A stretch of DNA of 47,715 nt, the filler included, from Dirinaria sp. TL-2023a (lineage: Eukaryota): the NCBI GenBank assembly GCA_051941275.1. It is 2 parts of 2 records of this genome, joined end to end, with 100 filler letters (N's around TTAATTAATTAA, not from the genome) between each part and the next. Parts side by side here need not be neighbours in the genome. Positions count along the whole stretch, not along the records: positions 1 to 23,838 come from JAVEBF010000197.1; 1 more part is not named here. One strand, 5' to 3'. A model generated the notes under the pieces. It was not told the origin of the DNA. It searched no databases and saw nothing but the letters and a program-made list of their open reading frames with translations. This document shows, piece after piece, positions 14,665 through 23,938 of this stretch. The position numbers and the translations under genes were made by a program. The first letter of the stretch is position 1; each line of letters starts with the position of its first letter.

Positions 14665-15501
14665 TCACGGCTTTCTGGCCAGGACTCGCAATCTCACATA
14701 GCCCAGCCACATGCTGTTGTCCTCTTCGTGGGTGAGGATCGTGCTCAGGACGTCGCACACCTCTTTGATAGCCGCCTCTCGCTTGTCCACCGAACTTAAG
14801 GTCTCCAATATCAGGGCTCCCATCAACCTTACCCACCCTTCAATGCCACCCTCCTTCTCCGTCGTCAGCCGCGTAGGTCGATACTGCAGCTCAGACCTCT
14901 GCACCATAAACCCGATCCCCTCAAGCAATTGCTTCATGAGCGCTTCCGACGGGAAGAACCACGGAACCGCTTCCCGAGCGCGCTCAATGCTCACCCCCTG
15001 ATGCACGACAGCCGCCAAAAGCGCCGCATGCACCTCAGCGACGTTGCCCGCCCCGCCGGTCTCAAAAGCAAACGTGCCACCCTTCTCCAGCGCTCTGAAC
15101 GCGCCGCGCAGGACCGATTCCCGCGTTGCCGGATCTCGCAAGATCCAATGCAGTGCCGCGTTCGAAAAAACCTTCGTATACGCTTCCGTTTCCACGGCTG
15201 CGCAATCCTCGACGTACCTGCAGTCCTGCACCTGCCACGACAGCCCGCTGGTCGTCGAACCGTAGCTTTGGCACGCCGCGCTGATCATGTTCGGCGACGA
15301 ATCAAGGGCTGTGATGCAGGCGCAGTGCTCTTTGATCTTGACTGACAGGGCGCCATCTCCGCAGCCGAGGTCGAGGATGTGGTCTGTTGGCTGCGGGTCT
15401 AGCCAGCTTACGATCTTATCGGTGAGCTTGGGAACGAAGGATGCGGAAGCGGAATAGGCCTCGCCAGTCCAGTGGTCTTTTTTTGAAGGTGGATCTGACA
15501 T
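14665..15501 (-). CDS. Class I SAM-dependent methyltransferase (trans-aconitate MT-like)
   Basis: Intronless 278-aa ORF with motif I ILDLGCGDG, ALDSSPNMI, and VFSNAALHWI. Confidence 0.92.
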   Translation of the reverse strand: MSDPPSKKDHWTGEAYSASASFVPKLTDKIVSWLDPQPTDHILDLGCGDGALSVKIKEHCACITALDSSPNMISAACQSYGSTTSGLSWQVQDCRYVEDCAAVETEAYTKVFSNAALHWILRDPATRESVLRGAFRALEKGGTFAFETGGAGNVAEVHAALLAAVVHQGVSIERAREAVPWFFPSEALMKQLLEGIGFMVQRSELQYRPTRLTTEKEGGIEGWVRLMGALILETLSSVDKREAAIKEVCDVLSTILTHEEDNSMWLGYVRLRVLARKP

Positions 15502-16742
15502 TGAGATCCTGATCTCACTAAGGTACCTATCTTAGTGCTGACGTAGTTCCCGGTCGCTTGGAAACTGTTCACGAGCGTCTCACGTGTCTTCCTCGGCTCG
15601 GTCCTTTCTGAGATTCACTAAGGTATGATACTTGCAACTACATGACGATGAAACCCTCCTAGCAGCAACTGATCTACTCGTACTACGATCAACTAGAGGA
15701 GGTAGGTCTATACGGCGTGGTTGCGGTATCTTTGCGCAGAAGATCATCCCAATACATAAATAAAGTGACCGACCTTCGCCCGAGTGGCTGCATCGCCCTT
15801 GATGCACCTTCTTTATTCGTCCCTTAGCTGCTCATCGTGGTAGTATTGCTGTTGGGACTCTGACAATCTTGTCGCTTTACAGTCGAGCAGAAATTACCGT
15901 CGGTCATCAGGCATTTCAGTGCAGTCAATGAAAACAGTCAAGCATTCGAGGGGTCAGGATGCTTTTCCCCAAGCCGACGATCAGCTTTTTGGCCCTTTTA
16001 GGTGCCGTTTAGATAATGTGGTCAGCAGCACTACTGTACAGTACACCGTCCGGAGACTTTTTGCTCTATTACTCGCATAATCTTCCATCCTCGCCTAGGA
16101 CAGGCTTGCGTCTTTAAGATGTATTTAACGCCTCGGCCTTCTTAACGCCTTCGCCACACTCGATATGGACCTCGCTCGAACTTAATCCGGCCGGCAGCTA
16201 ATATACTTACCTTACCTTAACAGTGGACGTACTACGTAGAGGTCGGGGGAACTCTAAGTAAGATTTTCGCGTGTCTCGGGGAGCTGTTGAAAGCTACCGT
16301 ACTTCATGGCTTGAACGTGACTGCCTCCAGCCCATTGGCCTAGGTACCTACTTTAAGACTTTCTCCTGAGTAAGGTAAGGTAAGGTACTTTAGGTACCTT
16401 GAAGTATTATTATTCGCTCTTGAGAACCTGAAGTTCACATTGGCAGACTCTTGCAAAAGAGCATCGACGTCATCCGGCATGACTCGCATCCTTGACTGGG
16501 CAATGTTCTGTGTAACAGCAGATCAACTGGATGCATGGTACAGCTTCTCATTGGACCCTCTGTAGGAGGTGGGCACACACCAATTGTTGGACCGCTCTGT
16601 CCTCGGGCTACACCAGTCGTCCAGTTGTCCACCGTCATTGGGTTTACCAGGGATGTGAGTCGTTCATCTCACGTGCTAAGTCGTCAAGCAGTCTCAGGCA
16701 GTCACCCACCCCCCTCGACCCTTTCTAGTATCGTCTTGGGGT

Positions 16743-16937
16743 GCGGAGGGGGAGCTCCACTCCAAAATGGTGGAATCTCCGCCTTGTCTGGGCAGATCGG
16801 CGTTCCTCAGAATCAAGCAGTCAGGGTATTCGTAGTCTCGTGCTCGTACTCGTACCTTACTAAGGTAAGGTAGTATCTTCAAATTGAACCGGATCTACAC
16901 TACCTTACTCCACTCTATATGAAGGCCATCCCCCCGC
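16743..16937. promoter_or_regulatory. Cluster of SYGGRG (CreA/Cre1-type) sites and a TATA-like element upstream of the hexose transporter
   Basis: GCGGAG 16743, CTCCAC 16755, CTCCGC 16777, CTCCAC 16908, CCCCGC 16932, and TATATGA at 16916. Consistent with carbon-catabolite control of a glucose transporter, but the motif is short and degenerate. Confidence 0.35.
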
Positions 16938-17077: not shown

Positions 17078-19277
17078 ATGGGTCTCATGATCAAGAAGCC
17101 CGAGCATGTGGCTGGCTCGGCAGCGCCGGCCATCATTGTCGGGCTGTTTGTCGCTTTTGGCGGTATCCTGTATGGGTGAGTTGGGACTGCCAGCATCTAA
17201 CAGCCACATGCGAGCCGATCTAAGAAAACATATGTTAGGTACGACACGGGTACCATTGGTGGGATCCAGGCCATGAAATATTGGCGTAGATTATTCTCCA
17301 CAGGCTACGTCAATCCGAAAGATAATTATCCCGATGTTACTGCGAGTCAGTCCTCAGAAATTGTGTACGTACTGGTTGCCCTCTGGTTCACTGCTTCTCC
17401 TTGGTCACCGCGAAGAGCTGGAAGAGATGTCTCGCGAGTGAAGCCCTTGATTCACGGTCTCCGATATTCTTGAAGCTCCATGGAGAGCGTGTGCTGATCC
17501 AGTGGTTCTCAAGTTCCATACTATCAGCTGGAACGTTCTTCGGCTCCCTTTCCGCGGCGCCAATGGGCGATTTCTTCGGTCGTCGGTTAGGGCTGATTCT
17601 GTCGAATTTCGTCTTCATATTCGGTGTGATACTCCAGACTGCTGCCACAGCGATACCTCTCTTCGTTGCTGGGCGATTCTTCGCCGGTTTCGGCGTGGGC
17701 CTCATTTCTGCGCTTGTCCCCATGTACCAGTCAGAGACGGCCCCGAAATGGATCCGTGGCGCTGTCGTGGGCTGTTATCAACTCGCCATCACCATAGGCT
17801 TGCTGCTTGCTGCCATTGTTGACAATTCCACCGGGGACCGAGACGACACTGGGTCATATCGCATCCCGGTTGCGGTACAGTTCGCCTGGGCTATCATACT
17901 GATCGTGGGAATGCTCATCCTACCCGAAACCCCTCGGTTTCATGTTAGGAAGGGCCACAACGAGAAGGCTGCGAAGTCCCTCTCCAGACTGCGCAGACTG
18001 GACGTCGATCACCCTGCGCTGGTGGAGGAATTGTCTGAAATCCATGCCAATCACGAATATGAGCTCAGTTTGGGCCAAGCCACATATCTTGACTGCTGCA
18101 AAGGCACGCTAGGGAAACGGCTGCTGACAGGTTGCTTGCTGCAAAGCCTCCAACAATTAACTGGTAAGTTCCTTTCTCAATCTACGAACCCAGTTCGCAC
18201 CTCCTTATCGCTAGTATCGGTGCTGTCATGGATCTCCTTTAGGACATACCGGGCTTCCATTGCAAGAGGTCATTCCATATTAGGTTTAGTACATTTGCCG
18301 GCCCGATATACCCGGCTCTCCAGCTTTTCGCATTCTCAATATCTACCCCTTTTTAGTGTTCTCCATGACCTGGTCTATGCATGAGTGATTCCTACACGGC
18401 AAGCTAACTTCTCTTTATGCGTCAATTTTATTTTTTATTACGGGACTCAGTTCTTCACGAATTCCGGCATCAGCAACTCGTTCATCGTCACCGTCATCGT
18501 CAACGTTGTCAATGTCTGCTCAACCTTCCCCGGGCTATATCTAGTGGAAAAATGGGGCAGACGGCCTTTGCTTCTCTCCGGTGCTGTGGGCATGTTTGTC
18601 TGTCAATATATTGTTGCTATTGTTGGCACAGCAGACCAATCTCAAGTGGCGAACAAGGTGCTCATTGCCTTCGTCTGCGTCTACATCTACTTCTTTGCGT
18701 CGAGCTGGGGCCCTGTAGCATGGGTTGTCACAGGCGAATTATTTCCCCTCAAGGTACGTCTTTGCCAGTCATCTCATGTGTCATATACTTGGCAAAGCAT
18801 TTGCGAACAATATTCTCCAAGCCTCGAAGTCATCTACGTGCAGGCCAATATTGACTCGGCGAAAATAAATAGGCTCGTGCTAAATGCCTCTCGATGACGA
18901 CGGCATCCAATTGGCTCCTTAATTGGGCCATTGCCTACGCAACGCCGTATATGGTGAACGCGGGTCCCGGCAACGCGAACCTGCAATCGAAGGTATTCTT
19001 CATCTGGGGAGGCTTCTGCCTCATTTGTGCCTTCTTTGTATGGGGAATGATATACGAGACCAAGGGTCTATCGTTAGAGCAGGTCGACGAGCTGTATGCG
19101 AAGGTTAGCAAAGCGTGGCAGTCGAAAGGCTTCGTTCCCACAGTCTCCTTCCAAGAGGTACAGGACCTCGGGGTCAGTGCGCGCTCGCAGTCCTTAGCGG
19201 ACATGGAGGCGGGCGCTGAACGCAAGAAGTCGGTCGCCGGTGAAATTCTGGAACACTCGGAAAAGTATGAGGTGTAA
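17078..19277 (+). CDS. MFS sugar porter, high-affinity glucose transporter-like (MstA/RCO-3-related; 5 exons)
   Basis: FGGILYGYDTG, DFFGRRLG, GRFFAGFGVG, YQSETAPKWIRG, PETPR, LQQLTG[V]NFIFYYG, VEKWGRR, SWGPVAWVVTGE and YETKGLSLEQVD motifs. Intron 3 (18164-18418) needs a non-AG acceptor (see findings). Confidence 0.93.
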
Positions 19278-21084
19278 AGATATTTGCCGGGCAATGACGA
19301 TTTTCAGTTCGCCTCTGTGAATGATGATTAGATAACGGGATAATTCTGAAGATGATGAGCCAACGTCAGTGCATCACTTAGTGCTTTGGGCGCCACGAAA
19401 GTATCGCTCTTCGAAACCACCAGCATATTGACATTGCTAGCCACATTTCCAATGGAGGATTGCATCCGTCATCAATCTAAAACTGTACTTATTATTCATC
19501 ATGAGAGTGGGACGGGTGCAAACGTGTAAGAGTCTCTCTGCCCTCCGTTTGCAGTCTTGCGTCTAGAGAGTAGTGCGCTCCGTGCCTCAGTGCGGGAGTA
19601 GCCGTGCTATCTAACAATATTCTATTATTGCAGGATTGACTTTGACAAGTACTTTATTTCTGACTCCCGTACATAAGGTACGAGTACATACCTTTAGACC
19701 TGAGACTGAGAGACCAAGAGACCACGCGACCTTGAAAGCGGAAAGCGGGGAAACGAAGAATCGTCTGCAGGGTCTCGGTGTGCATTAATGTGCATCTGCA
19801 TTCAAATGCAAGTACCCGCCTTAGCGGTATAATTCTACCTTTTAAACCCCAGCAAAGTTTCCCCCTATTTCGTAAATGGGGATTTTCATCGCCAATTGCA
19901 GGCTTATCGACGCGCGTGAGGTGGGTTTCACCACAGCAGTAAGGTACCCCAGTGACGTTTACCTGGTAATACAGTAGATCCAACAAAACCACAAGCACTT
20001 GAACGAAGTCTTCATCTTTGCAGGGTTGGTAATGATGCATAATAATGCCGTTCACCTTGCATCGAGAATTGCTTGTGTCGGATAGAGTATCTTACATTCA
20101 AAGGTAGGCAATAATAATGTACACCTAAATGTACCTTAGAGTCATGTACCTTATACAGCACCCGACCACTAGATCTACATACCTTATCTAGCTCGATTGG
20201 CGCTGGTGCCGGGGCACGCACTCCAAACCGAAACTGAGATGAACCAGTATAGGACGGTCGATGCTTGGCAGTCCAACACGTTACATAAACCAAACACCGC
20301 TGCGCCAGTCAACGGTCGAAGGCTTATCATCCCTCTAACTGCTACCTTATCTTCCTTTGCAAAATAACCCTCGGGGCCCTATCAGCTTCGCGCTATACCT
20401 GGTCCGCAAAGCCCAGGTGAGCCTGCCAGCCTGCCAGCCTCCGTCTCCCCTGCTTGGACCACCACGCGATTTCATCTGGATTAGCAAAAATTTACGTCTT
20501 GAAAATGTCGACTCGACACCACAAGCAGGACACCCGCCTGTGCGGTGTTGTTCCGATCGCCAATATTGATATCACCGCCTGCCCAAGTCGACATGATCTT
20601 CCTCAAGATTATCGTCGCTGCGTCCGGAGGGAGCTTCTTATAGCAAGAGTAGAGACGGAAGCTGGCATAGGTCCCACCGAATATCTATGATACCTCTCGA
20701 ACATCCGGTGGAGATAATGAACGGATCCATGGCCACAAGCACCATAGAATATCCAAATCTCCTACGACCAATTGCCGGTTCCCCAAGCGCGTGATTTTGC
20801 TTATTCGTACCGCGAACCCCCTTCGCCAATCCGTGCTGTGAAGAGCGTATATGTAAGGTAGCATTTCCAGATTTTGATCTCTCATGTTGGCGAAGCCAGT
20901 AGATTTGTTTTCTTCTTGCACGGCGGACGTCTTACCTACCTAATGGGAAGCCGGCCCCAAAACAGTTCGATGCAACTCTGACCTTGGAACGAGCTAATTC
21001 CGATTTGCAGCATCTCCGACTGGAGAGTGCAACGTTTCACAAACACTACTGCCTTCTGGTGAAACCAAAGTTTTGAGAGTCCGC

Positions 21085-23293
21085 ATGATGACCGCTGCAG
21101 TCATGCCTCACCCACCACTCTTACCAGCAGGCTCGCCCATGACTCCCGGAGCGCCACTCGCAGCGGCGCCGTCGACCAGCATCGGCTCGAAGGTGAAATC
21201 GACACCATCGGCAAAGGACAACAAGATTCCTCGAGGACGTAGGGAACGGCCTTGTGATGCTTGTCGACGTAGGAAGAGCAAGTGCGTCACTACAGAAGGC
21301 CAAAGCAAGACTTGTGCCGCTTGCGGTGTTCACGGACAGGAATGTACCTATCTAGAGGACCCTCAACCCAGGAAGCGGCGGCTTGATAACGAGGGAAAAG
21401 ACTCGGACTTGTCAAAGCGAAGATCGGTATCGGGAAAGTAAGTAATACAAATCCAGTGTAAAGGCTGCTCTCATCTTTGTCTCCAGCTCCGCCTTCACTG
21501 AGCGACGCTCCAAAAATTCCACCAGAGAAACGTCTGTAATCAAAACAGAAGGGGAATCGAACGCGGCTTCGATCAGTCCAGCAACGTCACCCACGGAGAG
21601 TTCCAGTTCCCGTTCTCAACACCATGGAACTCATATCGGATATACAACTGAGCTTGAGCCTATGCTTTTTGATTTGTCTCCGGAAACGACGATGACTAGT
21701 CAAGGCACGGGCTATCAGAAGACTGACGAACGCAATGCCTTTCTCATTCCTGAAGCCGATGATCCCGCGTCAACTGAAACCAACCACGCCGACTTGCAGC
21801 AAATTCTTCAGATCGTCGGCTCTCACGTTTCGACCCTTGTCCAAGTGTTTTGCAGTGTGATCAACCGCAGCTTACCAATCGTACCGGACACTTTCTTCGA
21901 TTTCCATGGCAGCTCCCCTTGGATGGGTGCTGATCCTGCATTGCTTGCTACGGTGTTTGCGCTTGCTGCAATGTCGCATACCAAGCCAATTTTGTATCCA
22001 GGCGACATTGAGAGGCTTGAAGAAATCGGATTTCGATCATTCGGTGTTGCGTTGCTCAGACCTACCCTCTCAACAATACAAGCCGGAATCCTGTTGATGC
22101 AATGCCCAGATGTCGATTCAAAGACTTTGAACACTCAGTTGGTGGGTGTCGCTTACGAACTCGGCCTCCACCTGGATTGCTCAGCCTGGTCCATAACAAG
22201 AGAGGAGCGCATGCTTCGAAGACGTCTAGGGTGGGCTTTGTACACGCAAGACAAATGGTGTTCCTTGATACATGGCCGGCCGTCGTTAATTTCCAAAGAT
22301 CACTGGGGCGTCACACCGCTCAATCAAGATGACTTCCCCGAGGACGAAACCATGGACGAGCAATTCTCCCAAGACATAAAGCGCGGGAGGGAACTCTTTA
22401 CGCAAATGGCAGCGCTCACCGGCGTTCTGTCAATCGTCCTCGAAACTTTTTACACACTCAAATCCATACAGGAGGTCGACCATGCTGGCCAAAATGGCAC
22501 AAGGCTAATTCTCGAGAAGGCGAAACCTGTTCAAATCAGGCTCAAGGAGTGGTTCACTAATCTTCCCGTCAGTCTCAAATTAGACGAGAACATTAATGGC
22601 AAACCTTCATCAACGGGCCACCTTCACCTCGCCTATTTTGCAACAGAGATCACTTTGCATCGCTGCATTATTCGGTCACTCACCTCCAACAATGCAGATT
22701 CTTACCTCACACATGTATGTCGGTCTGCCGCGAAGACCCGCCTGATATCGGCCATGGACTTTGTCAATCGTCTTCGCCCGGTACACTTGAGTTCGTTCTG
22801 GTACTTCCCTTCAAGGGTCAACTTCGCCCTCATTGGCACTTTCGGTAGCCTGTTGCTTGCGACAGCTCCCTGCCAGGAAGAGGCTGAGTTCTATCGCACC
22901 CGCCTATCGGAATATCGATGGACTCTGTGTGTGAGCAGCAAAGACGCCAGTTTCCTCACTTTCGCCATATCCTCGCTCGATGCGTCCGCAAACCTTCTCA
23001 AAGGTCTTCCACCGAAACCTTCCACCTCCGAGCTCACCGCAGAGCAGCCACAGATTATTGGACCCACGCCACGGCTCTCTCCACCCCAGGATGAAATCAT
23101 GGTGGACGAACAGCCTTTGCATCTGGGCCAACTTCGCGGCTTAGCCCCTGCTGATGGCACCAATTCCGGGTTGATTTCTCCTTCCACGTCGACTTTGAGC
23201 GATTCGCCTACGCAAGAGGCGTACGTAAGTTCCTTTATACATCCCGGTGATGGTTCGGGTGATGCTGGGATTTGGACCGGTCGGCCTTTCTAG
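21085..23293 (+). CDS. Zn(II)2Cys6 transcription factor with fungal middle-homology region, DAL81/TamA-like
   Basis: CDACRRRKSKC...CAAC...C binuclear cluster. Intron 21438-21486 joins it to ORF 21662-23293. The segments RRRLGWALYTQDKW..LIHGRP, HLAYFATEITLHR and RLISAMDFVNRL...FWYF resemble TamA/Dal81. Orthologue versus paralogue is not resolved. Confidence 0.88.
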
Positions 23294-23838: not shown

Positions 23839-23938
23839 NNNNNNNNNNNNNNNNNNNNNNNNNNNNNNNNNNNNNNNNNNNNTTAATTAATTAANNNNNN
23901 NNNNNNNNNNNNNNNNNNNNNNNNNNNNNNNNNNNNNN
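23839..23938. other. Artificial contig-concatenation linker (44 N + TTAATTAATTAA + 44 N)
   Basis: Exactly 100 nt and symmetric. The central palindromic 12-mer (23883-23894) places TAA stops in all six frames. Confidence 0.97.

Follow-up and report, generated by a model that had tools for sequence, protein, structure and literature searches.

A sugar porter gene of the lichen-forming fungus Dirinaria sp. TL-2023a contains an intron, the third of four, that ends in AT in the assembled genome (GCA_051941275.1). A private mutation or an assembly error most likely accounts for the odd T, which is only possibly part of a working but unusual splice site. The explanation we favor, to which we give about an even chance, is a recent G-to-T change of a TAG acceptor in this isolate or a close lineage, leaving a weak or null allele. 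The exon boundary itself is not a matter of chance, as RNA of a relative joins 18163 to 18419 and all 110 homologues compared lack an insertion there. Here, we describe the gene, the signals of its third intron, the acceptors of related genes and the relative's RNA, and weigh the readings that these permit. Positions are those of the window, the whole 47,715-nt stretch of DNA that was analysed, in which only 1-23838 lies on contig C197 and 23839-23938 holds two runs of 44 N, so that the part beyond need not be its neighbor in the genome.

Results

Gene model and predicted product

Translation of the five-exon model with the junction at 18418 (Table 1) yields 537 aa with no internal stops and with QQLTGVNFIFYY in TM7, which we take to be the sugar-binding helix of sugar porters; the QQxxGxN motif of this helix is present only with that junction. 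By sequence comparison the product is a sugar porter (TIGR00879 / PF00083), and the source label of its homologues, 'high-affinity glucose transporter rgt2', makes it a predicted glucose transporter. Against TIGR00879 the near-identical homologue P0004 scores 436.5 bits and P0003 407.5 bits, with a curated cut-off of 237.8, and the gene aligns with STP6, STP10, XylE and the GLUTs. The gene thus resembles the family in its TIGR00879 score, whereas intron 3 is absent from most of the loci examined. Two paralogues in the genome, L002 and L003, share 55% identity with it in exon 3.

Table 1. Features of the sugar porter gene and of its third intron
Feature	Position	Strand	Remarks
Exon 1	17078..17175	+	Start codon at 17078; gap-free match to P0004
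Intron 1	63 nt between exons 1 and 2	+	GT-AG
Exon 2	17239..17364	+	3' of intron 1
Intron 2	17365-17513	+	149 nt; GT-AG, ends AAG
Exon 3	17514..18163	+	Last base is first base of Gly292; relative's RNA joint starts at 18163
Intron 3	18164..18418	+	255 nt, phase 1, GTAAGT...TAT
Cryptic AAG	18401..18403	+	Acceptor in public annotation P0003
Branch site GCTAAC	18403..18408	+	Branch A at 18407; acceptor lies 11 nt downstream
Non-canonical acceptor TAT	18416..18418	+	T18418 is the anomalous base; junction +21 over best AG
Overlapping ATG, possible second non-AG acceptor	18417..18419	+	Frame shift, stop by 18544; putative use
Exon 4	18419..18753	+	Remainder of TM7 onward; private Ser345 at 18578
Intron 4	119 nt between exons 4 and 5	+	GT-AG
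Exon 5	18873..19278	+	Runs to stop codon

The homologue set comprises 161 proteins (P0004-P0164), and the motif count took those of at least 440 aa; every one of these (110/110) has LQQL[TS]GVNF without insertion. The exon 3/4 junction is the same in P0004, which is 99.1% identical, and in P0123 and P0124, with 96.8% identity over the shared part of P0123. The public protein P0003 is identical to the 537-aa product at 536/537 positions, and its annotation splices at the AAG ending at 18403; this acceptor is probably wrong, because the relative's RNA joins 18163 to 18419 exactly. A preliminary description of the DNA had proposed the gene model and the 18163/18419 junction adopted here, and the 537-aa reading frame, the relative's RNA joint and the 110 insertion-free homologues all bear it out. 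It had also held the rest of the gene to be intact, which agrees with the lack of internal stops and with the canonical GT-AG ends of introns 1, 2 and 4; intron 3 alone ends AT.

Several other details of the gene were observed. The splice at the AAG end of intron 2 skips a CAG lying a few bases past the likely branch site, and the public model P0003 has 32 extra residues at this intron. Introns 2-4 (149, 255 and 119 nt) are longer than those of the orthologues, mostly 47-70 nt. Upstream of the gene, 16768-16873 resembles 20 N-terminal residues of P0124, a protein of a relative, there joined to exon 2, and this similarity suggests that the first exon may have an alternative; near 16865 lies AAG/GTAAGG, a strong donor-like sequence.

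Signals of intron 3

The donor at 18164, ACTG/GTAAGT, is of the GTRAGT type characteristic of U2-type introns, and GCTAAC, the sole NYTRAY-type match in 18164-18460, supplies a CTRAY branch site at the usual distance. At the end of the intron the assembly has TAT in place of the terminal YAG of U2-type introns, and the border with exon 4 reads TTCTCTTTAT/GCGTCAAT, the last intron base being 18418. These features, reported in the preliminary description, are all present in the assembly at the positions it gave. Nine of the ten bases upstream of TAT are pyrimidines, TAT is unpaired in both folds computed, and AG dinucleotides end at 18385, 18403 and 18450, the last 43 nt past the branch A. This context of pyrimidines, an unpaired acceptor and no AG for 43 nt favors some use of UAU and in that respect counts against a loss of the acceptor. 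In homology-guided scoring the AT junction beats the best AG by 21 points.

Splicing at the AAG ending at 18403 would give 542 aa, with ANFSLC (5 extra residues) replacing Gly292 in TM7, and splicing at the GAG ending at 18385 would give 548 aa; use of the CAG ending at 18450 shifts the frame, and retention of intron 3 brings a stop after codon 364. The earlier remarks that the AG at 18402-18403 overlaps the branch site and adds ANFSLC, and that the AG at 18449-18450 shifts the frame, are correct.

Other origins of the AT end were considered and rejected. No slide of the junction gives a GT-AG pair. In a stwintron one intron lies inside another and its excision restores a canonical site, the final acceptor still being AG, and no slide places an AG at or beside the junction. 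The U12-type consensus, RTATCCTT at the donor and TCCTTAAC at the branch site, is matched at neither place by intron 3; U12 and U6atac RNAs were not found in the genome, whose assembly is incomplete, and U6 was found. A-to-I editing is not known to turn U into G. A genome search with intron 3, of a kind that may miss common words, returned one match, itself, which speaks against an introner or other repeated element. Neither a structured RNA (fold z +1.21) nor an Rfam family (best E 0.31) was recognised within the intron.

Acceptors in the gene family and the genome

Homology-guided testing of 83 loci yielded junctions in 54, several of which nearly duplicate one another; of the 120 junctions, 117 fit AG. 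The three flagged junctions are intron 3, L046 and L067; the latter two are 42-nt in-frame loop insertions without donor consensus and were rejected as non-AG introns. Intron 3 is thereby the only real intron of the family, among these junctions, that prefers a non-AG end. Introns at the same phase-1 position end in CAG in the paralogue L003, TAG in L066 and CAG in L095, and the neighboring phase-0 introns of L031 and L032 end in CAG. The preliminary description had proposed asking whether a non-AG acceptor is conserved across Pezizomycotina, and the AG ends of L066, L095 and L003, together with the lack of any other non-AG intron in the family, go against such conservation. Comparison of these loci rules out a family-wide AT site and is still compatible with a genus-level one, because the orthologues with AG are only remotely related (65-75% identity over exon 3).

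Among 80 metagenome loci, 70 have no intron in the T/S-G-V/I-N pattern, 6 have one and 4 show no match to the pattern; many of these loci are short transcript-like contigs, so that the absence of introns is overstated. Introns cluster within six bases around Gly292-Val293 (18160-18424 here, and L031, L032, L066, L095, L105, L106 and L003) and occur in three phases, phase 1 within Gly, phase 0 after Gly and phase 2 in the next codon. This cluster may reflect sliding or repeated gain.

An ab initio survey covered 800 kb of the genome in 80 stretches of contigs C1-C15. It gave 84 candidates, 56 with a compatible AG, and recovered intron 3, and the branch-acceptor distance most common among its AG candidates is 11-12 nt. 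The survey cannot bound the rate of non-AG acceptors, because AG rates were alike for branch and control motifs (0.72-0.87); among its candidates without AG no second frame-compatible AT case was found, at low power. One candidate, L188 (minus strand, 7204-7085), consists of a 462-codon frame and, after it, one of 122 codons that scores as coding-like, and has no AG within 40 nt of a GCTGAC; it is probably false.

RNA and reads from relatives

No public sequencing run searched shares half or more of the words of the gene; six share a small part, and four of these six were aligned to the window. In a relative, two RNA contigs of a single sample, X1 and X4 (depths 40.3 and 11.4), join 18163 to 18419 and are also joined across intron 4. 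They differ from the gene at 22/677 exon bases (96.7% identity). No retained-intron or alternatively spliced form appears in X1 or X4, and contigs drop rare variants. This joint fixes the exon boundary, and the AT letters come from the window, not from the relative's genome.

A related run, X5, probably of DNA, covers 18392-18551 and has the same intron at about 253 nt. One T>G change occurs among its 76 differing places, as an AG acceptor would require. This count is uninformative on the acceptor base because, by our estimate, background alone would produce about 1.7 T>G changes among the 47 places without a listed position. From run X6 nothing aligned to the region. Protein fragments P0165, P0285 and P0169 begin no earlier than Val293; P0125 and P0005, from closer relatives, read into an intron at the position of intron 3 and stop inside it. 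Seven short protein matches sought for read-through of the acceptor were all distant, and no stray fungal DNA was picked up by a pattern scan of contigs from prokaryote genomes.

Assembly, decay and the spliceosome

The assembly consists of 27.7 Mb in 3105 contigs and is labelled at its source as metagenome-assembled. On contig C197 and the next, the introns checked are canonical and no long frame is broken; where frames overlap in the genes for valyl-tRNA synthetase and aldehyde dehydrogenase, assembly errors were considered, but these places proved to be ordinary GT-AG introns. Between 997 and 23293 the contig also carries TFIIS, RNase P p30, a kinase and the valyl-tRNA synthetase, a methyltransferase at 14665-15531 on the minus strand and, just downstream of the transporter, a Zn2Cys6 transcription factor at about 21100-23293.

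Ser345 (18578) occurs in 0/110 homologues, and the residue is Phe in X1 as well as X5. As a second private change it counts for loss of the acceptor, although this evidence is weak since private residues are common: at least one of this kind is present in 46/107 other homologues, among them Pro341Ser in P0123. Three clustered residue changes relative to P0004 and P0123 lie in the C-terminal tail, at about 19242-19253. Among the codon differences listed against X1, 15 are synonymous and 1 is non-synonymous, a pattern consistent with purifying selection and in that measure contrary to loss of the acceptor. Any decay or loss of function would have to be very recent, because 15/16 listed codon differences are synonymous.

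Prp18 is intact in the genome, and the alpha-finger of Prp8 aligns to yeast 1585-1612 with Gln kept at the 1594 position. As far as these sequences can tell, there is no sign of a relaxed spliceosome. The PRP8 gene (G000:C338:2243-4748; L113, L114) contains an in-frame intein-like insert of about 650 aa that begins CLANG, ends VLHN and has acidic low-complexity stretches; two short introns surround the alpha-finger, downstream of the insert.

Discussion

Four readings of T18418 were weighed, by judgement and not by computation. In the favored one, intron 3 would be of the ordinary U2 type, and its acceptor would have mutated from TAG to TAT not long ago, in the isolate or its close lineage. 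The spliceosome would still branch at A18407 but would ligate poorly, its second step choosing among UAU at 18418, AUG at 18419, CAG at 18450 and two upstream sites. Most transcripts may then retain intron 3 and stop after codon 364, or take sites that shift the frame (AUG 18419, CAG 18450) or break the TM7 helix (AAG 18403, GAG 18385), and a small fraction may use UAU and yield the normal 537-aa protein. A weak or null allele may be tolerated, given the two 55%-identical paralogues (L002 and L003). We favor loss of the acceptor because 117/120 family junctions are AG, with AG at the same position in L003, L066 and L095; because one substitution would suffice to place a perfect YAG 11 nt past the branch; because Prp18 and the Prp8 Q1594 equivalent are intact; and because a yeast reporter changed from UAG to UAU yielded very little functional product (10.1101/2025.06.16.659908). 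The authors of that report infer use of a cryptic AG; an adjacent AG takes over in the reporter, whereas the next AG of intron 3 is 32 nt downstream. Mutations of the acceptor -1 G that create splice-site loss alleles involve the same one-base step from YAG to YAU, with cryptic sites nearby.

If, instead, T18418 is fixed in the species or clade, intron 3 would be a working U2-type GT-AT intron giving normal mRNA, perhaps more slowly. The major spliceosome would dock UAU, with U-1 pairing with G+1, and this would be enabled by the perfect donor and branch site, by the tract rich in U and by there being no AG close by. We regard this reading as possible but not probable. The rest of the gene is intact, and the exact junction occurs in RNA of the 96.7%-identical relative and in proteins P0004, P0123 and P0124; that RNA, however, is the relative's and not that of Dirinaria sp. 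TL-2023a, no other family intron has a non-AG acceptor, and the 800-kb survey, at low power, contained no second frame-compatible AT case among AG-less candidates. Precedents exist in the literature: human and mouse DGCR2 share a conserved U2-type GT-AT intron (PMC1557818), 18 GT-AT sites (0.02%) are annotated in Ganoderma lingzhi (PMC11590231), and GT-AT is counted among 'others' in human fungal pathogens (PMC6176087), all minor splice classes making up 0.257% of fungal sites (PMC7072748). The DGCR2 and Ganoderma introns share with intron 3 the U2-type donor, pyrimidine tract, AT end and location in a coding gene, but that of DGCR2 is conserved and transcript-supported (PMC1557818), whereas intron 3 is known from an assembly and a relative's RNA junction. 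The U12-type GT-AT introns in Table 2 of PMC1557818 have the same terminal dinucleotides, but the donor and branch site of intron 3 are U2-type. In Saccharomyces cerevisiae, CAU and UAU are the best-used non-G 3' splice sites and AUG is among the best-used BG sites, in each case mainly without Prp18, and poly(U) and accessibility help (PMC10711555). Intron 3 resembles these HAU sites in its UAU, U-rich tract, accessibility and distance of 11 nt from the branch (PMC10711555). The yeast HAU sites, however, are minor alternatives beside an intact YAG that rise on loss of Prp18 (PMC10711555), whereas intron 3 would have no productive site other than UAU, in a genome with an intact Prp18. Among the hits listed by a literature search there was no report of intron 3 or of any fungal sugar transporter with an acceptor other than AG.

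An assembly or consensus error, with G the true base and intron 3 a normal GT-AG intron, ranks next and is unlikely. A single base would explain everything, the metagenome-assembled genome is fragmented and relatives splice normally at 18163/18419; but the other introns on contig C197 and the next are canonical, their long frames are unbroken, and short-read consensus errors are usually rare. That the upstream AAG is the acceptor in use, with ANFSLC replacing Gly292, appears very improbable. It would keep the frame, it has the annotation of P0003 behind it and intron 2 of the same gene ends in AAG, but the site runs into the sole consensus branch site, falls 21 points short of the AT junction in score and is absent from X1 and X4, and no homologue (0/110) has an insertion at Gly292.

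Recent mutation and sequencing error, which the preliminary description had listed as alternatives, are jointly likelier than its main claim of a real GT-AT intron. Its further proposal that the intron throttles or regulates transporter expression found no support, either for throttling or for control by glucose, and regulation by sugar would be an unsupported further step even for a working GT-AT intron. We consider it decidedly unlikely that UAU is fixed in a clade of lichen fungi as the sole productive acceptor of a conserved, expressed glucose-transporter gene with normal Prp18 and Prp8, so that the choice between UAU and the frame-shifting AUG sets the amount of transporter, perhaps in response to sugar or hydration.

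Should the T prove to be erroneous or a private mutation, the matter is one of annotation only, the public model P0003 having a wrong TM7. If the T is fixed and the intron spliced, the gene would be a natural fungal gene that relies on UAU as its acceptor; studies of this site have until now treated it as a fidelity error of yeast mutants. The proposed U-1/G+1 pairing could then be tested directly, as could the idea that a weak acceptor tunes sugar uptake in a lichen symbiont.
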